A stretch of DNA of 58,663 nucleotides, filler included, from Sphacelaria rigidula (GCA_964200075.2; 3 parts of 3 records of this genome joined end to end with filler, not necessarily neighbours in it), one strand, 5' to 3'; counted from the first letter of the whole stretch, positions 71-17,982 are shown. Translations and numbers: made by a program. The notes: generated by a model from the letters alone, not told the origin.

Positions 71-3000
71 CCCCTTCTTCGTAAATAACAACGCATCCCT
101 CCCTGAAAAAAATCAAAGGCGGGTGTTGTCAAAGTTGGAGCCATTTGCGGCCGGACATCATTCAATCTGAACATGTGATTCATGCAAATAGAAAGCGTAC
201 ACCTCGACATAAATGATGAGACCTTGTGTTTTTGTCAGCGGGACTAGACACCCCGACGAGATTGGTCAATTCCCTCCCTGAGTGCGCGCTACGCGCAGGG
301 GTAGTGAGACCTTGCGTTTTTCTTAACGGGAGAGATTGGTCCATCCCCTCCCCAGGTACGCACGCGCAGGGGTTAATCTAACGCGGGAGGTATCGTTGGA
401 CGTATTCACCTACCCCTACTACTTTTATGACTCTCCCCGCTCCTCATCCTCTTTCCCGGGGATGACATCAACGCACCCCCTCCCCGAACAACTTCAGGGG
501 GAAGGGGGTGTTGTCCGATGTGTTAGCTATCTGCCGCCGGACAAAAATGAATCTCAACACATGATAGGGACCAGTAGAAAGACTACAACCTACCCGTAGT
601 AGCGATACCCTTTATTTTCCTTGACGAGATACAGACACCCCGGGGAAGTTGATCAGCTCCCTCCCCACGTACACGCTGGAGTTATAACCTACCATCAGGG
701 GCTGTTTAGTACGAATGGGGATGCTCCTGAACACGCGAGTGATCGCTAGAACGTATACAGGGTACAGGCTGATTTGAAACCACCCTTTGCTTCCTTCCCG
801 ACGATGAAACGAGCATATCTTCTTCACAAACACCCTCACCCAGGGGTGCCATTCAACGTATTTTCCGTTCGCAGGCAGACTTCATGTGTTGTGTTGTTGT
901 GTGTTGTCATCCCATCCATTCTGCATGCCAGTCTACATCTTTCGGTATATGTGGGCACATCAGCCGGGGTTACACAGGAGGAAGGCCAGCACAGGACTGC
1001 TTTTTCCCTTCATTTTGTTCTAGTGCTCCACCTTCCTTCAGCGGTGCTTGCCTTCTTTTTTTTAAGCGAGAGGGGTTCAGCAGTCCCTTTCCCTCATCGA
1101 CCGTAAAATCGAAATTTGTGTGCCCACGACATAGTCGCTCTCCATTGTTGGGCATGTTGTGAGAAAAAAAACAGATCACTCCGAGATTCAAACGCACGTC
1201 CCAACCTTCTGAAGGTTGCGAGGTTACCAACCGAGCCACCGGGGCGACCGACTACATGATGTTCCTAAACGTATGAGAGGTACCATCAATACTTCGACAA
1301 CCTTCCTGAGTACCCCTGGGACAGTCAGGGACACAACCATTCGTTTGCGACAGGCCGAAACGGTGAATACCACCCCCCCGGAGACGGCTATTTACTTATC
1401 TCTGAACCCAACCTTCTCCTGAGACTTCACGAGTGCCTGAAACATGTCGTCTATGTTGTCGTACGTGCCATGCACTAATGTTCCGACTCTTTATGAAGTC
1501 TTGAATATACTGAATACACCCAACAAAAGCGGGGCAACATTAGCCCGCATCTTGGTCTTGATTCAGACGAATTAATCAGGACCCGTCGCTCCAAGTACTG
1601 ACTCTATTTCGTTCACGAAGCCTAGCTTTAGTCGATTCGGCCGCGATTTTTTCTACTCCGACTAATCCGATAATAACGTAGATGCGATTTTCCGAGTCAA
1701 CTTTTTCGTATCCATTCTTGAATACCCCGAATTCGTGATGAGGGACGTAACACGGTCATTTTACAGGGATATGAGGATTAACATCGTGACAGGCACCTCG
1801 GATTCAGTGTCTGCGCCGATTTCCCAGACGCACTACGCTTTCTTCCTTGGTTCCAGTCAGAAAGGAGCCGGGGAAACTTTGGCCTTAACAACCGCGAAAG
1901 TGCCCGCTTTTAGAAACGATTAGCTCATGATACTGACTGTGCTGTGCTGTATTGTGAACAAGGTCAACAGCTTGCAAGCGAAGGTTGTCAATTGTGCGTG
2001 AAGTCGCTGGCAAGGTACTGTACAGGCTATTCAGGTAGTCCATATTTGTTTTTGAGGCCCTAATTCCGTAAAGGTGTACAATATGCAACGAGATTTGGCT
2101 GGCGGTCGTGACCTCATTTGAGACTACTGGTCAAGACATGAAAACTACACCCTAGCTGCGAGTGTGGCAATGGTCGGCATTTCTAGAGCATAACATCCTC
2201 GTTTTAAAATGATCCCGCTTGTTGGTTGGACCGCTTTACGGGTCCTCGAGCACACCCTCTCCCACACAAGAGATACACCCCCATCATGTGCGCCCCAGGA
2301 ATATCTGCGAATCAAGGGTCAAGGAAGTGTTGCCGAGACCCGGCTAGCAGTCATTGGCTTGAAGCGTGAGGTAGAAACGGGGCTGAATCTCAACCGCAGA
2401 GTAGATGCCAGGCGAAGTCACCTGTAGTTTATATTAGCTGTTTGGGTCTACCACGAGCTGAGCCGGGCAACGTTGCTTGTTCGCGGTTGGTGGGTGACGC
2501 GCCATTCAATGTTGAGAAGTTCCGTGATAGAGGTCATATATTATGTACGTTTTTTTTTTCAGCGGCAGAGCGTGCATGACAGGTTGGTCTGCAGTTCACA
2601 GCGATACACTCACATCGGATTGATTGGGGAAACTGAAGAAGTTGTTGTGTGCCCGGGATATGCACGCTTTACGGTCGGCCTAGGTCGTAGGACATGGACA
2701 TTCTCGTTCACGTCTTTCGCGCCTACACAACTCCAGATGGTCACTGGGTATCGATACGAGCCCTTGTTGAAGGCCGTCGAACTGGACGTGCAAAATTATC
2801 AGCAGTTATTCCAGTCCTCGGCAGTGTCGCTACAGCCCTGCAGTACAGTTCAAGCTGAGCTGCTCAAGAAAGCCATACTTTTTGAGATGGTCGTACAAAC
2901 TGAACGCCCCCTAGTCAGGCTAAGCTGAGCATTGTCGTTGTAATCGGCTAGTTAAGATGGCCAAGCGCAGCCATCTAGTCGTGGAATCCGCCGGGTTTAT

Positions 3001-3379
3001 CTCGTGAAACTCTCGTCTCCAAGTTCGCACTTTTTATATATCACTTTTTTTTTGTCTTGGAAGATCCCATGGAAACAAAAAAATCCGAGTTGGCTCACAC
3101 TTTCCAATCCCGAGGCAACAAGGAAGGCGGTGAAGGCCTCGTTCCGCGATTCATCTCCCTTTCAAATTTGGAGCTGAAAGTGCTTTCCTGTATTGTATCC
3201 AAGTTAGTAGAGGGAGCGATCTTGGTGCAAAGATCAAGGACTTGATGCCAGACGAAGCTCATTTCTTGGCCGTGGGACCTGAATTCTTGACATGTGATTC
3301 GCAAGTAACTCGCTGACACATCCGTCGTCACCCTACACTTTTTTTCTTTCGTCGACTTACGTCCCAACTTGCATGACTT

Positions 3380-3646
3380 CAAGGGGAGGTCGAGTAGAGT
3401 ATGTACTTTTGAGTACTCGAGTAAAATACTCCAGTATTTACACTACTCAAAGTTTGGGAAGGTAGAGTACGACCTCAAGTACTCTACTCAAGTTTTGAGT
3501 AGATTGAGTATGATCTCAAATACTTTACTCAAAAAAATGAGTAGATTGAGTACGACCTCAAATACTCTACTAAAAATATTGAGTACCAAAAATATGAGTC
3601 TTGGAAAATACTGGGTATTGAGTATACTCTACTCGACCTGCCCTTG
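3380..3646. mobile_element. Non-autonomous DNA transposon (MITE, hAT-like) with internal TACTC/GAGTA repeats
   Basis: 23-bp TIR with one mismatch (CAAGGGGAGGTCGAGTAGAGTAT ... ATACTCTACTCGACCTGCCCTTG). Flanks CATGACTT / TATGATTT resemble a decayed 8-bp TSD. A second partial copy lies at ~39253-39420. Confidence 0.75.
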
Positions 3647-3939
3647 TATGATTTAGAAAAGTTGAGTCGTTCTTATCCAAGAGGCGTGGGGCAGGGGGAA
3701 TGCGGCGACGACGAATATTAATGCGAGTTCCTTGCACATCACGTTGTTGAGATCCCAACTCGAAGGGATGAGCTTCGTCTGGCCTTTTTGTCGAACCCTC
3801 GCTTTGTTGTCTTGCCAAGCTTGTATCTTGATCGTTACCCCGCGAGCTGCATATGGCAGTGATTGCGCGACTGAAAAAGTGCATGCGTTTACCCGCTGTT
3901 TGCCCCACCCCACATGTCTCAATGCCTTCGTGTGCGCAG

Positions 3940-5957
3940 TACCCCGCGATCGGCCTCCTGCTGAATCGAGAATTTTACACGTTCATAGAAAACAAAGAGA
4001 CGCGGGAATTGAAACCAGCCGAACCTTTGGTGCGGGAGCTTACAAACTTTGGTATCAAGGAAGACGACGGCACCAAGAAGCAGTACCACGAGACTTTGGT
4101 CATGCGCGTTACGGTACCCTCTCACAGCCAATCATGGGGCATCAACATATGTCCAGAGGATCACCACGACTTCCGGGAGGTACTCTTTCACTTCAACCCT
4201 CGGCGGAGGTTCGTGGCGATGAACAATCGAGTAGACAAGGTTTGGGGGCAGCAGGTGCGCATAAAGTAGCGTATTTGCGTGCGGCTGTAACTGTTGATGC
4301 AGGTACTTCGTGCGCAGCGTCCTCGCAAAGGAACCCCAATGTTCAAGGGGCGTAGCACGAATACGTCGTGATTTTTTCAGGTGAAATTTCCTACATCTCT
4401 TGCAGACATGAACGAGGCACGGGAGAACTCGTGATTACCAAGAACGATTCACAGTTCCACAATCACGCTGCACTGCGTGGTTTTCCAAGAATCGTTCCCA
4501 TCACCTCAAACCTTCTTCTCGTTATGACATATCGTGGCGGCAGGAGAAGTATATGATGCAGCGATGGCCGGATCTATTCGGCGTGTCGATCATTATCGGA
4601 GTGCAGCTCGACAAGGCCGGGTTCCACGTGGCCATCGACGGCAAATACTGCGCGACCTTCGCCCATCGAACGTGAGTGAGTTCATGCCTCGTCTCCACGG
4701 TACTGCTTTACGACGTCTTCTTGTCGCGATTTTAGGGCACCTTGGGGTCGAACGTGATATCCCGTCAAGGGCATCTTGTCATCTTCATCCCAGTCTTGAG
4801 ATCATGTTTTATGCATACGTTTGCTACGGTCACGCTTGCAACTCAGGGCATTGCCTGCGAATGGAGAGAAGCTGTGTCTCCAAATCATGACGAAAGACGA
4901 CTACGATACCAACCTCGCACTCGTGGTGGACGAGATCTGGTGGGGCCACAAGGACACGATGCCGGGTCTTCCGTGAGTTCAAACTGTTGCCATGGTTCCT
5001 TCGCATCAGATGGTGCTGTCGCTGAAGTCGCGACCTGGGAATGGGTGTCGTCTCATCCGTTTGCACTCGTGTTTTCGAGACCCGAATAAGTTCCTTCATT
5101 TTTTAGAGGCAGCAGCACCAGCGAAATCACTGATGTTTCACCACCTGAGGCGGACGTCCGTTGGGTTTGCCCGATAACTTCCGGTGTGACGTCGAAATAC
5201 TCGCAGGTACACAAAATGAGTGGTGTCAATTCTCGCGCTCTCCTGTCAGTCATGCTCCGCTTCTCGCGCATTGCTTACAGGGGCGCAACCAAGGAGCGGA
5301 AGTCTGCGGACCACCGACGGGAACAACCGGAAGGTGAAATGGTGGATCTGCATGTCGGAAACCTTCCTCCAATGAGAACCGTGGATGACGAAAGCAGGAT
5401 CAAGGAGCAGCTCGAGAACTACTTCAGCTTCTACGGGCTGCAGCAAGTGAAGGTGTTTCACCGAGGGGAAAAAGACTTCGGGTGAGTGAAATTCCATTCG
5501 CCATCATCGTGCTGCGTGTGGTTCAGCGACTTCGATAGAGTATGATGGAGACGATCCTGTTGTTTTTGCGCATGTGCAGCAATGATTGAGACGATTCTCC
5601 TCATCTTACCGTGCGTACAAACAATCTGAAGTGAAGAGATCATCGGCGCAGGTTGAGGGATATTTTGTCTCCAGAAATATGCAATGGGGCGGTGGAACTC
5701 ATCCCTTTAAGCACTTGCACTGAGGTTTAATAGGGCTAGGAAATAGTTGATGGCAAGAACGACCCTCCGTTCGAGGTACGACCAAAAACTCGCCTCAATC
5801 ATCTCCAATTTTGCACTGGTTTTGAACGTTAATTTTTTCGCCGACCAGGTTTATCAAATTTCGAGACAACAGAAGTGCATCCCAGGCTTTGAAGGCGATG
5901 GATGGCAAGGCGATTGAGGGCTGGAAAATGAAATTGAGCTGGCCGAAGGGAAGATAG
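3940..5957 (+). CDS. Galectin-domain + RRM fusion protein (multi-exon, 5' end not resolved)
   Basis: Phase-consistent GT-AG exons 3940-4254, 4544-4671, 4847-4972, 5281-5481 and 5849-5957 (stop TAG). The spliced protein has the galectin signature FHFNPR..VAMNN...WGQQEK...FHVAIDGKYCATFAHR. It ends in an RRM: RNP2 LHVGNL, RNP1 KDFGFIKF, then ..A.QALKAMDGKAIEGWKMKLSW. Exon 3940 starts at an acceptor, so upstream exons exist (weak candidates near 2299, 2736 and ~3064-3305). Confidence 0.85.
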
Positions 5958-8506: not shown

Positions 8507-9541
8507 CTAACGTGCCGACCCCCCCATAAAGTCAACCAAACCATCGAGGCTCCCGTTTTTGACGGAGCAGGTCGTCATCACCACCTCGCACGGCGAGTCC
8601 ACCTCCAGACTGAAGGGCTGCCCGGGCCGGCCAAGGACCATCGCCGTTGGCAAGTCATCTTCCTCCCCCTGCGTTCCGAGTGTGTCCCTGGTGCCTCTCA
8701 GCTTCTCCACCTCTTTCTGCAGTAACATCTTGGCCCGAGTCGCCTTAGCCTCTTTCAAGTCGCTCTTGTTCAGTGCCACAAGCAACCCCTTACAGCTGTC
8801 CATGGACGGGTCGGATACGACGTCGTAAAACAGCTCCGCCGCTGCTGACACTTGCGACGCTAGACAAGAGCCATCGAGGACAAAAACTACTCTTTCTGCC
8901 CTGCGAAGCTCTTCTCCAAGTCCACCTCGAAGTCTCTCGTGGCCGGGGTAGTCAATGAGAGCGGTGGATGGTCCGCCGCTTCTACTCCTTGCTCGGTTGC
9001 TATAATTGTCACGATAGAGGTATGTGCACGCTTGCATGGACGTGACGGTGTCAACCATGCGATCGTGGCATAGCCGGTGCATCATCGCAGTTTTGCCTGC
9101 ACCACATGGACCGAGAAACAGGATGCCCTTGCGTTTCATCGAGCCACTACCGCCGCCACTACCGCTGCCTAGGCTGCCGGCCTTGCGGATCAAGATGAAT
9201 GCGAGAACAGTAGCGGCGAGCGCGACGCAAACCACCGAGGTGGTCGGCAGCCCAAACTCGGCCAGAAGCATATCAAACGATCCAGCAAACGAGGATAGCG
9301 ATTGACTCCAATACTCCAGCAGCGATATGAATTTGCCTTCCCTGTCAGACGCCAGCAGATCAGCCACGATATTGCCTACGCCGGCGGTCTTCTCGATAGG
9401 TAGCTCGTTCGAAGCAACTTCTGCTGTGACGGCTGTCAGGTCGTTGTTCACCTCGAGGCCTAGCTCTGTTGCTGCTGCTGAGGGCACGTGGTAGGCAGCA
9501 GCCAATGCCAAAGCTACCGTGCGGAGCATCCAGCAGTCCAT
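8507..9541 (-). CDS. SRPRB: Signal recognition particle receptor subunit beta (Arf/Sar-like GTPase), intronless, N-terminally extended
   Basis: Uninterrupted ORF with a TM segment (VVCVALAATVLAFILI). It continues with G1 GPCGAGKT, TVTSMQ, the SR-beta-typical DYPGHERLR, VVFVLDG, G4 NKSD, LQKEVEKLRGTR, and a C-terminal TCSVK..LDGLVDFM. ATG 9541 was chosen for its aaaATGg context; ATG 9613 is an alternative. Confidence 0.9.
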   Translation of the reverse strand: MDCWMLRTVALALAAAYHVPSAAATELGLEVNNDLTAVTAEVASNELPIEKTAGVGNIVADLLASDREGKFISLLEYWSQSLSSFAGSFDMLLAEFGLPTTSVVCVALAATVLAFILIRKAGSLGSGSGGGSGSMKRKGILFLGPCGAGKTAMMHRLCHDRMVDTVTSMQACTYLYRDNYSNRARSRSGGPSTALIDYPGHERLRGGLGEELRRAERVVFVLDGSCLASQVSAAAELFYDVVSDPSMDSCKGLLVALNKSDLKEAKATRAKMLLQKEVEKLRGTRDTLGTQGEEDDLPTAMVLGRPGQPFSLEVDSPCEVVMTTCSVKNGSLDGLVDFMGGSAR

Positions 9542-9832
9542 TTTCGAAGTTATGGCGCCACTTTCGGCGCTCCTAGGCAGCGGTGCCACATAGATCCTTT
9601 TAGGTTTGAGCATAGCCAACGTCGGTATGCCAGGTGTCGCCAAGTGGGCTTGCTTCTTAGCGATTGTGGGCTCGAGATGGGCTGTTTGAGAAACTCTCGT
9701 GAATGGAGTATGGCAGTATTTCACGCAAAAGTGGAGTATGGCTTTTATTGTTACGGCAATAGAAGTATGCACTCTTTTGAGCAATCACAAACGTTTTTGC
9801 TCATGTTACGTGCATGCACCTAAGGATTAACG
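9542..9832. promoter_or_regulatory. Short intergenic region between divergent SRPRB and HAL2-like genes (likely bidirectional promoter)
   Basis: Only ~290 bp separate the head-to-head start codons (9541 on -, 9833 on +). No specific motif was identified. Confidence 0.45.
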
Positions 9833-12800
9833 ATGTTGTTGTCGTCGATGCGACGCATAACGGCCTTCTGCTTGTTAACAAGAGGGACTGCAAAGATCCC
9901 CTCCACTGCCCTAGCATTTTCTGTCCCATACGGATTTGACGGAAGGGGGTGAGTGAATTTGTTGTCATTTTTTTAGAAGAGCCAGCGCAACTCCACTGTT
10001 GTACTACGAGTACTCTCTCTCGAATTTCAGTGCGTCTGCAGTTCAACCCCCTGCCAGCCTAGTGCTCGTCGTTGCACACGACCTCCCGTGCACAGTGCTG
10101 GGTTGCCGTGGTTGGCTGTAGCCGTGTGCTCATTTCTCATCGTGTCTGGTGCTATCACTGTTGCTTGCTGGCGTTGCCCCTGCAAACTGTTGCGTCAGTA
10201 CTGCAAGTCGCAGGTCCGAACGCGGCGGAATCTTTTCGATGAAGTCGACCGACCTGCGCTTGCAGACAGCCGAGCCACTGCTTGCAACACAGCAAAAGCA
10301 GGTGCACCAACACGAGCTGCACGTTGTAGCCCGATTCCCAAGGGATGATGTCGATGCGAAGGCGAGGTGAGACAAACCTTTGAAACCTCAGTTTGCGAAA
10401 TAAATACAGACGGAAAGAGTTCTGAGATAGGATGGCAATGTTGCCCGCCGCACAGCCAGCTCTCTCCTGCTGCGTGCGGGATATCTAAAGATGTGGCAGC
10501 CAAAAAAACATGTACAGTGTACAGTCCCGCGAGTGATTAGAGCATGCTTTTCGTTTCTTCTTGACAGTATTTGTGTTTCCCCACTTTCTGTGAAAAGTGC
10601 TCGAGTAAAGCCCCGCCTCCCTGAGATCCCCGCCCCCCCCCCCCACCCCCCCCCTCTCTCCGGGAACGGTTGGGTGACTGGAACAGATTGAATTCGCTTT
10701 CATCAGCGATAAAGGCCAAGCACGGCGACAGAGTCGCGGTAGAGGGCCGGGTTGGTATTTGCGAGGATGAGGGGAACATCGATCTGGATGCGAGGTGCCA
10801 AAAGCTAGACGGGTGGGCAGAAGCTTGTAGTGAGACCAACCTCCCCACGTTCGTGTTCGAGAAGGAGGGTCTAACGATAGACGAGTACCACGCATACGGC
10901 AGCGCCTCCTATGAGGATGAGGTGCACAAAAGGGTGGATGCTGCGCTCTCCCTCTCTCGGCTGGAGGACGTCTGTGAGTCGACCCCCTGGGTGGTCGTGT
11001 GCTGTGTGTGTGGTGACGGATCGGTCGGCCTCATTTCAACACCCGAAATTGTTATCAATCAGTTCGCTATACCGTGCACTTTCATCATCAGTCGTACTCT
11101 AGCCTGAGCACTTCGTCCGGTTCATAACACTCGAAAGTGTGTAGTGACATCGAGCTACGCAAGCGTACGGCAGCGTGTCTCCTGACTCCCTTGGAATATG
11201 AAAAGGTGGGCTTCACATGCAGCTCAAGGAAGTGAATTTTTCGGGGAGCGTTTGTTACTGCGTTTCAAACCCCGTAACTGCAAAATGTTTGCGTAGGTTC
11301 ACTGCAAGAAACTCTCGTTGAAGTCAAGCCAGCACACCCTGGACGATACATTTTATTGTAAAAAAAATGTACAGCGTACAGTATGGAATCTATTGTCTAT
11401 TGCAATAGGCGCAATAGTCGATACTGTACGCAGTACACTACTTGATTGTGTTTTCTATTGTCCAGGGTATGCAAGCCAGAAACTTTTACTCTAACATACA
11501 TGCATATACCCGGACTATTTGGGACCACGATACAGGACTACTTCGCAAGCAAGCACTTCTCTTGAGGTCTCAAATATCAGTCCGTCATTTCATACGGCGA
11601 GTGTAGTGTGCGATCGCTCCTACAGTAATGATCCCCCAAAACTCTTCGCGGTCTATGTGGCATTGGGTGACCGCGTAATAGAGTCTTCACCAGTACGACA
11701 TACCTCAGTGCGGACATACCTAAGATAAAAAAAAGTATGGTAAGAGTACCAATGCTGAGGCACGGTTGAGTGGTCGCTAAAGGCCCGTCTTAACAGGAAC
11801 AAGAAAAAGTCAAGAGCAAAGCGAGTGTCCATAAGCAGCGTGTTGATAAGTCGCCACAACATCACGAGGCGGGGTGATGTCACGGCGACCAATCAACATG
11901 CTGCTTTTGTACGCTTGCTTTGCTCTTGGCCTTTTTTTGTCCCCTTAAATAGGCCTTAAGCTGGTTCTGTCGACTTATTTCATTTAATATCCTCTCCGTG
12001 AGAGGAATCGGACACCCTCTGCTCAATAGTCTAGGCACTGCCTGCGCGATGTTTGGCGCTGCTTGATTGAGTTCATCATAGAGTGACTGTTGCTGTGCTT
12101 TACTGTGCTGTGCTGTTTTCGTCGAATGGACTTTCCTCATGGACCAAGTTCGCCGGTGTGATACATGTTTTTAACTTCACGCCTTACATGCCCGCCCTGG
12201 TGCTTGCGTGCAGCGACTATGAAAGAGCTGTGGTCTCCGGATGTAGAGGGCGGGCACTATCGTGACGAGATGGCCGTGGCCACGTACGCAGTGCAAGTGG
12301 CCAGCACCGTTGCCAGAGAGTTGCAAGCGGAACTGTGCAAGCAAGGCGCCATAAGGTATTCCCATTCTGTCTGCTTCTGCGGGTGTAAGATACCTTGCCT
12401 GTCATGAATGCTCCCTTCGCGCTGGTTGTATGTGCTGTGCCGGAGTATGATCCCCTTACCCCATACTACTGTACACCATCACGCTTTCGTGTTCTCCTAC
12501 TGCCTCCCACCGGCACTTACTCCGTCGTCACTCGGCTCCGTGACCGTTCTATTACTCCGATTCCGCGTCATATTTTCATTCTGTTCTGCAGCAAGATGGA
12601 CTCCTCCCCCGTGACCGTGGGCGACTTCAGCGTACAAGCCATTGTCCTGCACATCCTCAACCGTTACTTTCCCGGCTACGGTTTCATTGCAGAAGAAACC
12701 TCCTCGGTTCTCCGACAAGATCCCGCCTCCCTTGCCGCCGTGTTGGAGGTTTTCAAGAAAACTATACACCCTGATCTGACGGAGGACGAACTATGTGCGG

Positions 12801-15800
12801 CTATCGATCTCGGCGGCAGGGGACACGGATCCCTCGGGCGGGTGCGACCGGGACGGGGAGGATGTACATGGGTGCTTGACCCCATCGATGGCACCAAGGG
12901 GTTCCTCAGGGGCGAGCAGTTCTGTGTGGCGTTGGTGAGAGAGCCTGTAGGACAGATTTCTTGGAGCCATTCGCACCGAACCGGTCGGTTGTGTCTTTCG
13001 AAGTCCACTGGGTTCCGTCACCCCTCGCAGTGAGCTGTCTTCGGCGTTTATTGCCTGCTTACTATTCCTACTGTATAGAATTTTGAGGGGCAATCTGGAT
13101 TGGTGAGCGTATTTCTGTGTGTAACACCCTACATGGGTGTCGTCGTTGCTTGAATCTGAAGTGTGGCCACGCCACGAGTTCTCCTCTCTCTTGACACTAG
13201 GTTCCATCCTCCCACCGCCGACTTCACCGAAATCGCGTATTTCAGGGCCTACTCGAGAGCGGCAAGGCCGTAGCAGGGATCCTGGGGTGCCCCAATCTGC
13301 CTGTGAGCAATGATGCTATGCCGGCGGGTAGAGGTGCTCCGGCTGCTGACGCCGACATGAACCGTGCATGTGGTGCCAGGCGAGTTAGTTCCCGGGTGTT
13401 GCTGCCACAGGGTAAACGACAGTACTTGCGAATCACGAACATGTCTTGGATACTGTCACGTACTACTAGCATGTGTGTTGACTGCGGTGACTGGAGCTTT
13501 TGGACCCAAAATTCTTGTCAGAGGTTTGTTGCTGATTTTTGCTTTGCCTTTGTTGCGCAGGGGGGTGGTATACAGCGCAGCTGTTGGAGAAGGTACCTTC
13601 GTCAGGGCACTTTCGGGCGCGGGCGACGACACTCGACGAGTCATGGTGTCGAGCGCAAAAAAACCGTGCGACACTCGGGTGTTGGAGTCTGTCGAGTCTG
13701 GTCACACGTCTCACGGGGTGGCCGCGAAGGTGTGCTCTGATCTGGGGATAGAACTTGCCCCGATCAGGATAGACAGCCAGTGCAAGTACGGGATGCTGTC
13801 TGAGGGACAGGTAAGCCCTGCTGTTCGGGCTGTGGTTTTTGCAGACAACGACACGCTCGTGCTGCCGTTGTACGGACCGTTTCAGTTAGGCCCCTGGCCA
13901 TTTTTTTGACGCGCTTGTCAGATTTCCCCAAAATCAAAGCCGAAGTGCTTGCGACGGACTTCCGAGATCTGTTGTTCCTACGTGCTTTTTGTCTGTTGAC
14001 CAACGCACGCATTGTTTCAACAGGGAGGAATCTATCTGCGCCTGCCACGCTGGGGCTATGTGGAAAATATATGGGACCACGTTGCAGGGTCCGTCGTCAT
14101 TCGGGTGAGCTTTTTCATACTGAATATGAACGTTGAGCTTGATTGGGAGTGTGTATGGGCTAGTATGTCTTCTCTTGTGTGCGGTAGCGGTAGCAGTTGA
14201 CTGCGCATTCTACGACCGCCGCTTCATATGCAACCCCGCTGATGATGCTGGGCAGCATGCATACTCAACGACGGTGACGCTTGTTCTGTCGCGACTTGAT
14301 CCTGACACACGCTGGGGATGAGCAGGCAAACGGAAGCACATTTTTGCTGAGTATCGCGTAATGCTTCGGGGCTTGTCCTTGACTTGCGCTCACGTCCGAT
14401 GTGCAACACCGAAACCTCTGAAGACACCGGAGTGTGCGGTCGGTGTTTTGTCGTTCCGACCACATGCGGGCTTACTCACCATCTTATCAGGAGGCCGGAG
14501 GCAAAGTCACAGACAGCCGAGGAATGCCGCTAGACTTTTCTCTCGGCGCTAAACTTCCAAGAGAGGTGAGTCAGTACCGTTCTTGATGGAGGCAAGAACA
14601 CCGCTTGTTGCAGCGGTAGCGATTATATGCTGCGGAGTCGCAGGACAGTATCAGAGTTCGCAACGCAGCATCACTATTATACCTACATAAAGGGCTGATG
14701 GGGTAATCCATGAAGTAGCGCTGCTCATGTCGACATACGTCCAGGCTTTTGCTTTCGAGCTCCGTACTAGAGACGGTCTTTGGTCTGCTTAATGACACCA
14801 TGGTGATGGAAAGCACAGTATTACACGCATGGGATATGAAATATTCAAGTCTCCGGAAACCGATCGCACCCTCGAGTTTGACTGCCTTTTCAGCGCCCGA
14901 GGTACTAGCTTTGGTTACTGCACACTTCTGTTCACTTGCGCACCGTTCGCTGCGACGCGTGTTTGCTTCAAACGCATGCATGATACGCCCCACAGGTGGT
15001 GGGTGTAGTGGCCACGAGTGGTAAAATACATGCGGAAGTGGTCCGTGCGGTAGGAGGCAGGCAAATTGAGGATTGGGCCCGGGTTGTCGCAGAAGCTAAG
15101 GGCCGGGGTCAGGCCAACGGCGAGATCGCCCCGCGTCTTCCCGGGGTGGACTGGTCGTTCGGCCTGGGCGAGAGCGACGACAGGATGAGCGACGAGTGGT
15201 GGACCTCGGCTGTTGAGCAGCAGCAGCCTTTGGTCATGCGGACGAGCTATCAGTTCTATGGTGCTCTTCGGCGGTACGTACTCCCGCGTTTGATTTGAGG
15301 TTGAGAAGCATCTATAATTGCGCACTAAAAGTAGTCCTAATGTTTAAGTTACCTCTGGCTACATTCGTGAGAATCACTGCATGTGTCTGGACAAGCTTGC
15401 CTGTCTCATCTACTTGCAATCTTAACTCCAACTGTTCGCGCCGTGGACGTATCCTCCTCCATTTATATTTTGCCCCAAGGTCGCCCGTGATTCACGTGTC
15501 CGGCTGACATCCTCGCGCTGTCCAACAGACGCCAACCTATCCGGCCATACGGTGCGATAGATGATACAATCGTTTGTTACTGCCTGAATCATTAACCCTT
15601 GTGTGCGGGGTACCTGGGAGTGATTGCTACGATGGGATTAACGGGCGTGATTCATGTCTATTCCGTTTTGCAGGGGCTGGGATAAGGTGGTGGTGGTATT
15701 GTTTCACGGCAGCTGGACGCAAGAGTCGCAGCACGCGGTGGGCCTCATGCAACACCTCGCCGGGCGGCGACATCAAGGACGAAGCCGCTCAGACGAACCC

Positions 15801-16091
15801 GACAACACCCACGACACGAGCGATAGAGGGAGTCTCGGTGCAGCAACGGTCGATGTTGTCTTTGCGGAGGCCGACGTGATGACACTCATCGACGTCGCGG
15901 ATCGACAAGCGATTGCTGCGCTGCCGTCGGTGCACCTGCACCTGGGGGGGCGGGAGGTAGTGAGGTTCCCAGTGAAGCGAAATGAAAGCGTTGAGTCTCT
16001 AGGTGCCAGAATAGATGAGGTGGCGAGCACGATTCAACGCATGTCAGAGTTCACGGCTACACAACTGGCAGCCGCGGCGGCCGCCCGGTGA
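9833..16091 (+). CDS. HAL2: HAL2/SAL1/MET22-type 3'(2'),5'-bisphosphate nucleotidase (inositol monophosphatase family) with N- and C-terminal thioredoxin-like domains and a possible organellar leader
   Basis: Phase-consistent exons 9833-9948, 10199(or 10214)-10366, 10687-10973, 12214-12355, 12592-12934, 13246-13379 (GC donor), 13561-13810, 14024-14104, 14491-14565, 14996-15273 and 15674-16091. Family motifs: SPVTVGDFSVQAIV, FIAEE, WVLDPIDGTKGFLRGEQFCVALGLL, GILGCPNLP, ESVESGH, DSQCKYG, IYLRLP..ENIWDHVAG..IREAGGKVTD. The catalytic core is secure; linkage of exons 1-3 and the last exon rests on phase and splice-site fit. Confidence 0.85.
11781..11956. mobile_element. Palindromic (foldback) MITE-like element / long hairpin in a HAL2 intron
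   Basis: Two ~85-bp imperfect inverted arms around an 8-nt loop (…ACATCAC gaggcggg GTGATGT…). Termini AGGCC…GGCCT are flanked by TAA on both sides (PIF/Harbinger-Tourist-like TSD). Confidence 0.7.
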
Positions 16092-17415
16092 ATGACTCGT
16101 CATGATTGTTTAGTGTGTGCGGTGGAGTATGCGTTCGCACCGAGCTCACGGAGTTTTGTTTGCCCCCGTCAGGAAACTGCAGGGTTTCCGTGTGTGTGTG
16201 TTTCAAGACGATGGCTGTCGTCACCTTGTGATTCTAGAATGCAACCGCAGCACGGAGAGCGCTTGATGAGCGGATTTTGTTGTCAGGTGTTGATGAACCT
16301 ACATTACCAGCATATATGTATTTTGTGCGTTTGGAGTTGATGACTGCGCCAAAGACCATGCGTTTGAGCGTTGAGTTAGAGTAGTGGGCACGGAAGTAGA
16401 GCATACTTGTAGCCGGGCACGAGAGAGTGCTCGCTGCGCAGTCATAGCTGCAAGCGATCCCTATTTTTCCGAGGAAAGGTTCGTATGTACAAAGGGGGGC
16501 ATGTGGCACTGGGAGACCATATTTTGCGCTTTTCAAGGTTGTTTTCAGGCTCGTGTCATCTGCAACGTGGTGCTCAAGCGGTTGAGTCAGCCACGTGTGT
16601 TGGCTGTTGTCGGGGGTTTTGTTTCCTCTCGGGGGGGGAGGCTGTATTTTTTGCTTGTCATATGCAATTGGGCGTACGCGTCCACAAGGAGGGGTGGCGA
16701 TGTGGGGTATGTGGACACGTCACTGTACATAAACGGTGTCATTTTAGAGGCACCTACGACGTCCATACCACCGATGGAATTGCTCAATGAAAATATGTGT
16801 TGTGAAGCGGCTATCATGAAGGTTCAAGCGTAAGATGTGGCCACTGCTGGGATACCAAATGTGTGCATTTGCGTCCATCACTGCAAACGAGGACCGACAA
16901 CGTTTTCGTGAGATTCAGAGTAGCGCGCTGACTGAGAGTGACTTTGATCATTCGCTTTGACTTGGCCAATTCTTCATTCCGTGTGTGCTTTTCTTTGCCT
17001 GTGTCACTGGTGTGTGCTTACAGCTACACGTCGACATTCTACTGAGGGATATCAGGGGCTTCAGTGGCAAGCTACTACAGAAAGCATATCGGGTCTCGCG
17101 GAGAGGCATTCCGGAACTGAAACGATTCATTCACCAATGGACCGCTTCTCGCTGATCGCATCCTCTACTTTCAGCCTCACGAAAACGTTGTTGACCGCAT
17201 TCAGCACTCAGCACACTGCTCAAGAGATGGTGGATGACGATGAACGACTTCTTCCACAAAACGCACATTCATTCCCATGCTGTTCCTATGCACAAAATAT
17301 ACCCGAAAAATTGGGTGTCCTGATCGTGTGTACCGACCTCCCCTAACCCGCGAACGCATTACCCTCGCTATGCATGGATAATCTCCGCCGGTACACGGAT
17401 AATCTTTCATCACCA

Positions 17416-17982
17416 CTACCAGCCCGCGAGCACAGCCCTTTGCGTCTCCAAATCCATCCTCGTGTACCCCCCAAGCTCCATAGTGAAACTCGCCTCTCCA
17501 GCCGAGATCGACCGCAAGGTCGTCGCATACCCCAACAACTCCCTCAGCGGCACCCTCACGCGCACCTCGTGTCTACTACCTACCCCAGATTCTACGTTCC
17601 GATTTTGAAGCCCTCGTTCAGCCTGCTCCATCCCCCTCATCCTCGCCTCGAGCGAATTCTTCAATCCTCCGTTTCTAGCCGCCGGCAAATCGACGGACCT
17701 TATCTCAGCCCTCCGATTGGCCGTGAGGTCGTTCAACACGGTTCCCACATGGCTTTCCGGCGCCCACACCTCTGCATCCATGACGGGTTCTAGGAGCCCG
17801 CCACCGGCATCACGCACGGCTCGTGCTACCGCAGAGGCCGCGGCGAAGCGAAGCGCGCCCGGGGTGGTGCGGTCGCCATGCTTCGTGACAGATATCACCG
17901 ACAGTACAAGGCCAGCCATGGGGTAGCCGCCTGCAGGTCCGCGGGAGAGTGCATCGCGAAGTCCGCCCTGAAGGGCATCCAT
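17416..17982 (-). CDS. GFM2: Terminal exon of an elongation factor G-family gene, most like mitochondrial EF-G2 / ribosome-releasing factor 2 (domains IV-V); rest cut off by the assembly gap
   Basis: The acceptor CCCCCAG precedes MDALQGGLRDALSRGPAGGYPM…LLEPVMDAEVWAPESHVGTVLNDLTANRRAEI…VPLRELLGYATTLRSISAGEASFTMELGGY, then a stop. Weak upstream exon candidates lie at ~18134-18195 and ~18829-18963. The GTPase domain is not in the window. Confidence 0.8.
   Translation of the reverse strand: MDALQGGLRDALSRGPAGGYPMAGLVLSVISVTKHGDRTTPGALRFAAASAVARAVRDAGGGLLEPVMDAEVWAPESHVGTVLNDLTANRRAEIRSVDLPAARNGGLKNSLEARMRGMEQAERGLQNRNVESGVGSRHEVRVRVPLRELLGYATTLRSISAGEASFTMELGGYTRMDLETQRAVLAGW

Follow-up and report, generated by a model that had tools for sequence, protein, structure and literature searches.

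The level of 3'-phosphoadenosine 5'-phosphate (PAP), a toxic by-product of sulfation, is set by the phosphatase SAL1, according to the available part of a review (PMC9426629). The same part of that review describes PAP in plants as a stress signal from the chloroplast to the nucleus that is switched by SAL1's own cysteines, and places the plant enzyme in chloroplasts and mitochondria (PMC9426629). Three solved structures of SAL1/HAL2 (MET22) enzymes, 8f9y, 4hxv and 1k9y, are 325-357 amino acids long and consist of the core only, in agreement with a preliminary description of the DNA considered here, which had taken these enzymes to be normally single-domain. This DNA, referred to below as the window, is a stretch of 58,663 nucleotides, filler included, from Sphacelaria rigidula (GCA_964200075.2). 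Its + strand carries, at positions 9833-16091, a gene of 11 exons, the spliced frame of which is open for 763 amino acids. The locus is probably a single expressed gene for an enzyme of three parts, in which a SAL1/HAL2-type core is combined with a thioredoxin module that has no redox function.

Both folds are well known, and the novelty lies in their arrangement. A SAL1/HAL2 core with thioredoxin-fold extensions is not known from the enzyme of plants, yeast or bacteria, and a search of titles and abstract openings, with genome-paper supplements outside its scope, found no report of a SAL1 or inositol monophosphatase fused to a thioredoxin-like domain. Another sulfur-nucleotide enzyme, the plant-type adenosine 5'-phosphosulfate (APS) reductase, is fused to a thioredoxin-fold domain: a part resembling 3'-phosphoadenosine 5'-phosphosulfate (PAPS) reductase is followed by a C-terminal thioredoxin- or glutaredoxin-like domain. 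The redox cysteines of that domain are kept and used in catalysis, whereas the C-terminal domain encoded in the window has none. Thioredoxin folds that serve in binding, and not in redox work, are represented by phosducin, Dim1 and the b domains of protein disulfide isomerase (PDI).

A phosphatase core and its extensions on one message

Splicing of the gene was followed in Logan contigs from two studies (four runs), which were aligned to window positions 9700-16300. That these runs are of RNA is a guess and is not on record; their contigs are spliced. Joints were found at all ten introns, nine of the GT..AG and one of the GC..AG type, and the joints 10973/12214 and 15273/15674, on either side of the catalytic exons, are present in the contigs of all four runs. 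A single contig of 3049 nucleotides (X3 record 12) contains exons 2-11 in one piece and runs into the 3' untranslated region (UTR). A single mRNA thus carries the N-terminal, catalytic and C-terminal parts together.

The encoded protein begins with a putative presequence of about 55 residues, followed by an N-terminal domain (residues ~78-190), the phosphatase core (~205-551), a conserved linker and a C-terminal domain (~610-763). Compared with the SAL1/HAL2 enzymes, about 150 amino acids are added before the core, not counting the presequence, and about 210 after it. The same head, core and tail are found in three full-length relatives of 643-692 amino acids, which were retrieved by a last-exon search for longer proteins and all of which contain PF00459. 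One of them (P0005) is from Undaria pinnatifida, a brown alga. The window protein is 49-65% identical to the three over nearly the full length (65% to P0006 and 61% to P0007); for individual exons the identity to P0006 is 75% in exon 4 and 56% in exon 10.

The central part is related to SAL1/HAL2 along its whole length. Two of the relatives, P0006 and P0007, score 292 and 294.7 bits on the TIGR01330 profile (bisphos_HAL2), the equivalog cut-off of which is 267.05. These are whole-protein scores of the relatives; on the window the profile was applied exon by exon, and exons 5-9 match it collinearly from profile position 38 to 328 (positions 38-158, 159-186, 197-278, 281-305 and 307-328, respectively). 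Exons 4 and 10, when scored singly, gave no TIGR01330 match. Residues 122-459 of P0006 align to residues 3-342 of the 352 residues of the solved SAL1 8f9y_A with an E value of 2.6e-70, and the next matches of this core in the PDB are yeast Hal2p and another PAP phosphatase. The metal site of the inositol-monophosphatase superfamily is marked by the motifs D-P-I-D-G-T and W-D-x-x-x-G and by an upstream Glu. All of these are intact in the window protein, as FIAEE and VLDPIDGTKGF in exon 5 and WDHVAG in exon 8. Taken together, the comparisons strongly support the assignment of residues ~205-551 to a complete 3'(2'),5'-bisphosphate nucleotidase of the SAL1/HAL2 type, which should hydrolyse PAP to adenosine monophosphate and phosphate. 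The preliminary description had proposed such a core, spliced to both terminal parts, and both proposals are borne out.

The cysteines of plant SAL1 are numbered Cys119, Cys167 and Cys190 in the available part of the review (PMC9426629). With this numbering, the position of Cys167 is kept in the window core (within GCPNLP), while neither Cys119 nor Cys190 is found at the aligned position. A cysteine of the window protein lies five residues before the Cys190-equivalent position, and a shifted disulfide may be formed through it.

The first 55 residues of the protein contain 2 acidic, 9 basic and 13 Ser or Thr residues, as well as a weak hydrophobic stretch followed by Ala-Leu-Ala-Phe. Their composition makes it likely that they are an organelle-targeting presequence. 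The Phe stands after a possible signal-peptide cleavage site and resembles the heterokont plastid motif.

The C-terminal and N-terminal domains

The C-terminal domain was compared with the PDB by means of a profile of 20 family sequences. At E<=10, 23 of the 24 hits are thioredoxins, the best being yeast Trx2 with an E value of 0.0071. Two stretches align collinearly: WTQES falls on WCGP(C/S) of the thioredoxins, and DV...LPS...GGRE falls on DV...MPT...GGKE, with the cis-proline in register. The resemblance is to the cytosolic-type eukaryotic thioredoxins (h/Trx1-2), with which the domain shares the fold, the Trp that precedes the active site and the register of the cis-Pro loop. It differs from them in the lack of CxxC, in a score below the PF00085 threshold, in the presence of a disordered insert and in being fused to an enzyme.

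An AlphaFold model of this domain was obtained for a relative, P0016, which includes the part equivalent to that encoded by window exon 10, from an alignment of 18 sequences. The predicted local distance difference test score (pLDDT) of the model is 61 and its predicted template modelling score (pTM) is 0.54. Its strands (E) and helices (H), E20-22, H25-33, E39-45, H50-67, E92-98, E116-121, E124-130 and H137-156, follow each other in the thioredoxin order; E20-22 and H25-33 correspond to the part that lies in exon 10 of the window gene. Foldseek found at least 342 matches to it at E<=1e-3, and among the matches listed all 44 are thioredoxin-fold proteins or designs. The best match is yeast Trx2 (3pin_A; E 3.4e-7, TM score 0.81, root-mean-square deviation 2.6 A). 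When the model was compared by VIA-align with 48161 chains, 109 chains had a Z score of 8 or higher, and the best of them include TXNL2 (13.2), phosducin (12.9), thioredoxin h1 (12.9), PhLP2 (12.5), the thioredoxin-like domain of Grx3 (12.5) and Dim1-type proteins (11.7-11.9).

Residues 472-763 of the window protein contain no cysteine. Neither CxxC position is occupied by Cys in any of 16 family sequences; WTQES is present in 12 of them and variants of it in the others. Because WTQES stands in place of WCGPC and cysteines are entirely missing, the domain is incapable of thiol-disulfide exchange. The sequence and the model together strongly support the view that residues ~610-763 form a true thioredoxin fold without redox cysteines. 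In thioredoxins the active-site loop and the cis-Pro loop form the groove in which targets are bound. In the family considered here, both loops, the one at the former active site included, are better conserved than the core strands, and LFHGxWTQESQHAV is the domain's most conserved block. The insert, which precedes the third strand, is disordered and varies in length from 28 to more than 100 amino acids.

The distribution of the C-terminal domain was determined with a four-sequence profile, which was searched against 1.84 billion representatives. At E<=1e-3 it matched 21 proteins, of which 17 reached E<=1e-10; the search picked up neither a canonical thioredoxin nor any other family. Of the 20 matches examined (P0024 was left out), 19 contain the same domain and one is an unrelated repeat protein. 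Most of these relatives are last-exon open reading frames (ORFs) of genomic contigs and begin with junk derived from introns. In seven such genomic ORF fragments (P0012, P0013, P0014, P0017, P0018, P0023 and P0026) the frame of the domain breaks right after SLIDV and junk lies beyond the break, which suggests that the domain is interrupted by an extra intron in those lineages. The window gene has no intron at this position.

The N-terminal domain was aligned in eight sequences, namely the window protein, four exon-sized relatives and the heads of the three full-length relatives. The alignment contains a conserved GDRVAV strand, a loop of variable length that often has cysteines, the block (C)LP(A/T)F.F..GL.IDEYH and a conserved helix. 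A profile made from it hit 16 entries of the PDB at E<=10, of which 14 are thioredoxins aligned in one shared register on the cis-Pro loop. The aligned region of about 45 residues comprises this loop, the next two strands and a part of the last helix, so that the second half of the domain is placed on the Cys-Met-Pro-Thr-Phe region of the h/Trx1-2 thioredoxins. The would-be first strand may be HVVARF, which belongs to the segment ELHVVARF starting at 10314 in exon 2; its spacing to the GDRVAV strand suits a thioredoxin fold. PRDDVD is found at the place where CxxC would stand, at the start of the first long helix, and the cysteines of the window domain, C120, C132 and C142, form no CxxC. No homologue of the exon-2 part was found in the searches for relatives or by phmmer of the exon-2 peptide against the PDB, and hhalign of the N-terminal against the C-terminal domain gave no match. 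A word-indexed search for longer proteins with the N-terminal domain found none at E<=0.01, a result that reflects the sensitivity limit of this search since three such proteins are known.

On balance, residues ~78-190 are rather more likely a degenerate thioredoxin fold than anything else. The preliminary description had placed a thioredoxin-like domain without CxxC at either end of the enzyme. Its C-terminal assignment, with WTQES in place of WCGPC, agrees with the profile search, with the model of the relative P0016 and with the lack of cysteines. Of its N-terminal assignment, the absence of CxxC stands, and thioredoxin hits were obtained for the half encoded by exon 3, but the best E value is only 0.061.

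Cysteines in the N-terminal loop differ among the relatives. The Undaria protein P0005 has C-G-S-C directly before the conserved Leu-Pro, that is, a CxxC away from its canonical place. One or two cysteines precede the Leu-Pro in other relatives, and none in the window protein.

Possible function and alternative explanations

Among the closest known counterparts of the C-terminal domain are phosducin and PhLP, Dim1 (U5-15kD), the thioredoxin-like domains of Grx3 and TXNL2 and the b and b' domains of PDI, all of which have a thioredoxin fold incapable of redox chemistry. They have no detectable sequence relation to the C-terminal domain, and none is fused to a phosphatase. By analogy with them, the C-terminal domain most likely binds something without reacting with it, either another protein or the core of the same enzyme. 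Acting as a binding module without redox function, it would hold the partner, or fold back on the phosphatase, and the clearance of PAP would in this way be placed or regulated. The N-terminal domain might do likewise, or might sense redox conditions through the cysteines of its loop. The preliminary description, too, had pictured redox-inactive thioredoxin folds that would dock partners in a scaffolded or regulated PAP-clearing enzyme, a role that may be linked to heavy sulfation.

A number of observations weigh against a three-part enzyme of this kind. The model that is decisive for the C-terminal fold is of moderate confidence, as its pLDDT and pTM indicate, and is that of a relative only 47% identical to the C-terminal domain of the window. 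The AlphaFold model of the window's own exon 11, built on a four-sequence alignment, is poor (pLDDT 53); its best Foldseek match, at E 0.18, is not significant, and thioredoxins account for 42 of 46 rows. Pfam calls neither of the extra domains: PF00085 has E values of 0.2-0.28 in two relatives (P0005, 12.1 bits; P0006, 11.6 bits), below the gathering score of 23.5 bits, and is not detected in the window exons. Comparison of the C-terminal domain by hhalign with a profile of 81 proteobacterial thioredoxins gave a P value of 0.073, and hmmsearch of both extra domains against the 81 proteobacterial TrxA sequences gave at best 6.4 and 2.6 bits (reversed controls, -0.2). For the N-terminal domain the best E value in the PDB is below significance, the alignment is confined to the second half of the fold, and the available relatives lack the first half or do not conserve it. 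Its comparison by hhalign with the 81 proteobacterial thioredoxins gave no match, and ESM Atlas yielded no usable match to P0028 or to window exon 3. In addition, the presumed signal peptide is weakly hydrophobic in its core, where the Kyte-Doolittle mean over 9 residues reaches at most 1.48.

There is a real, if minor, chance that the thioredoxin fold is confined to the C-terminal domain. The N-terminal extension would then be a small domain with no relation to thioredoxin, or a stretch particular to the lineage and partly disordered, and its LP(T/A)F..G..IDEY likeness would be convergent or due to chance. This is favoured by the low significance and short extent of the PDB alignment, by the failure of hhalign, of hmmsearch against bacterial thioredoxins and of ESM Atlas to yield anything for this domain, by the exon-2 part without detectable relatives, and by the length of the loop that separates the first conserved strand from the LP motif, which differs widely among the eight sequences. 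Nevertheless, nearly all of the PDB hits are thioredoxins in the same register on the cis-Pro loop, and in five of the eight sequences Cys-Leu-Pro stands exactly at the Cys-Met-Pro of the best-matching solved thioredoxins. The second thioredoxin-derived domain in the same protein also makes a thioredoxin origin plausible. It is unlikely that the extra domains neither bind nor regulate anything and are relics left by an old fusion to active thioredoxins, retained only to stabilise or oligomerise the enzyme. Such relics would be in keeping with the loss of the catalytic cysteines in all 16 sequences, with the long, variable and disordered insert within the C-terminal domain and with the lack of a known partner. 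However, conservation within the C-terminal domain is highest in the former active-site loop and the cis-Pro loop, which is unexpected for a purely structural relic, and this domain is kept in about 19 fragments or proteins.

Somewhat less likely still is an enzyme that has retained redox control but moved it, so that the loop cysteines of the N-terminal domain (C120, C132 and C142 in the window) would act as a thiol switch, possibly joined by the GCPNLP cysteine of the core. A Cys two residues before the conserved Pro in five of the eight N-terminal sequences and the C-G-S-C of P0005 speak for it, as does the retention of Cys167 without Cys190 and Cys119 in the numbering of the available part of the review (PMC9426629). 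On the other hand, no cysteine of the loop is invariant, and the window protein does not have the cysteine of Cys-Leu-Pro, in place of which P0006 and P0007 have Phe. That the terminal exons are an annotation artefact, derived from neighbouring genes or non-coding, is refuted by the splicing of the contigs and has practically no likelihood. Apart from alternative 5' forms, in which contigs are unspliced through intron 1, nothing favours it; every intron is bridged, one contig spans exons 2-11, the three-part order recurs in three relatives, and the next gene upstream, for SRP-receptor beta, is read divergently from the opposite strand. The three-part enzyme with a non-redox thioredoxin module is the explanation favoured here.

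Within this explanation, a more specific role for the C-terminal domain can be pictured, although it is rather improbable. The domain would be a thioredoxin mimic that keeps the target groove (FHGxWTQESQH and the cis-Pro loop) and binds a thioredoxin-receiving surface stably, by which it would physically couple the production of PAP to its removal or put a switch at the protein level in place of the cysteine switch of plant SAL1. The surface might belong to a PAP-producing enzyme, such as PAPS/APS reductase or a sulfotransferase, or to the SAL1 core itself. In that case, an independent rewiring of the SAL1-PAP stress signal would have taken place in the brown-algal lineage.

The wall polysaccharides of brown algae are heavily sulfated, and much PAP has to be cleared in these algae, whose stress signalling evolved independently of that of plants. 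A SAL1, conserved in the lineage, that has lost two of the three plant switch-cysteine positions compared (Cys119 and Cys190, but not Cys167) and has gained one or two dead thioredoxin modules offers a handle on how the clearance of PAP is regulated or localized. Its C-terminal domain is, moreover, a clear case in nature of a thioredoxin fold that has been reused as a module without redox function. The functional proposal is a well-founded hypothesis of relevance to algal sulfur metabolism and retrograde signalling.

Gene structure and neighbouring features

The gene model (Table 1) was started from the peptides of the preliminary description and from tblastn of a full-length relative, and was then fitted to the contig joints. 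These peptides read in the frames that had been assigned to them: HVVARF in exon 2, AIKAKHGDRVAV, WAEACSETNLPTFVFEKEG and EVHKRVDAAL in exon 3, and VVVVLFHGSWTQES, VVFAEADV and VADRQAIAALPSVHLHLGGREV in exon 11 (15675-16088). The start ATG, at 9833, is preceded by an in-frame stop 12 nucleotides upstream, and the stop codon is TGA at 16089-16091.

Table 1. Exons and associated features of the phosphatase gene in window coordinates
Feature	Position	Strand	Description
Exon 1	9833-9948	+	Start codon and basic, Ser/Thr-rich N-terminal presequence; joint 9948/10199
Exon 2	10199-10366	+	End of presequence, then putative strand 1 and start of helix 1 of the N-terminal domain; joints 9948/10199 and 10366/10687
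Exon 3	10687-10973	+	Conserved region of the N-terminal domain, with the GDRVAV strand, a variable loop containing Cys, LPT (10841-10849), two strands and the final helix
Exon 4	12214-12355	+	Short linker and start of the phosphatase core (from ~12258); joints 10973/12214 and 12355/12592
Exon 5	12592-12934	+	Core with metal-site motifs FIAEE and VLDPIDGTKGF; TIGR01330 86.1 bits
Exon 6	13246-13379	+	Core (ILGCPNLP); GC donor at end; TIGR01330 21.2 bits
Exon 7	13561-13810	+	Core; TIGR01330 60.1 bits
Exon 8	14024-14104	+	Core with WDHVAG motif; TIGR01330 30.4 bits
Exon 9	14491-14565	+	Core; TIGR01330 17.9 bits
Exon 10	14996-15273	+	End of core (~15055), conserved linker, strand 1 and helix 1 of the C-terminal thioredoxin domain (from 15227)
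Exon 11	15674-16091	+	Cys-free C-terminal thioredoxin-fold domain: WTQES at 15714-15728, disordered insert, LPS (cis-Pro loop) at 15921-15929
Intron 6	13380-13560	+	GC..AG type; contig joint in all four runs
3' UTR	16092-16300 and beyond	+	Contigs continue past 16300; X3 record 12 has 663 more letters

The single GC..AG intron, intron 6, has the donor AG/GCGAGT. The contig joint appears as 13376/13558 with 4 ambiguous letters and resolves to 13379/13561. A GT donor of exon 6 at 13397, used in the first model, is ruled out by the contigs, which place the donor at 13379.

At the 5' end, the joint of exons 1 and 2 is present in two runs only (X2 and X3), with only 29 nucleotides on the exon-1 side. 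The main spliced contigs of runs X1 and X8 retain intron 1, from 10052 or 9982, instead of joining exon 1, and are possible alternative 5' forms. A loose end of 28 nucleotides before 10052 in X1 was not found in the window. If the read-through form is translated from the next in-frame ATG (~10239), the protein would have no presequence, which would allow dual localization.

No paralogue of the phosphatase gene and no canonical thioredoxin gene was found in the whole window, and an Rfam scan of positions 9000-17500 gave no match. The upstream neighbour, at 8510-9628 on the - strand, codes for the beta subunit of the signal recognition particle (SRP) receptor (PF09439, E 5.5e-25). It is transcribed divergently, and the start codons of the two genes are only about 200 base pairs apart. 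Intron 2 has a long C-rich tract at 10627-10655, shortly before the acceptor region of exon 3. Intron 3 contains, at 11332-11472, an element similar to a miniature inverted-repeat transposable element, in which a palindrome of 35 nucleotides in perfect register (11368-11437; 77% complementary) lies inside a second inverted repeat of 17 nucleotides. The summed contig depth of this stretch is ~2800-4000, compared with ~100-300 for the exons, and its flanks in the contigs are many and different; the element is, therefore, a dispersed, transcribed repeat.

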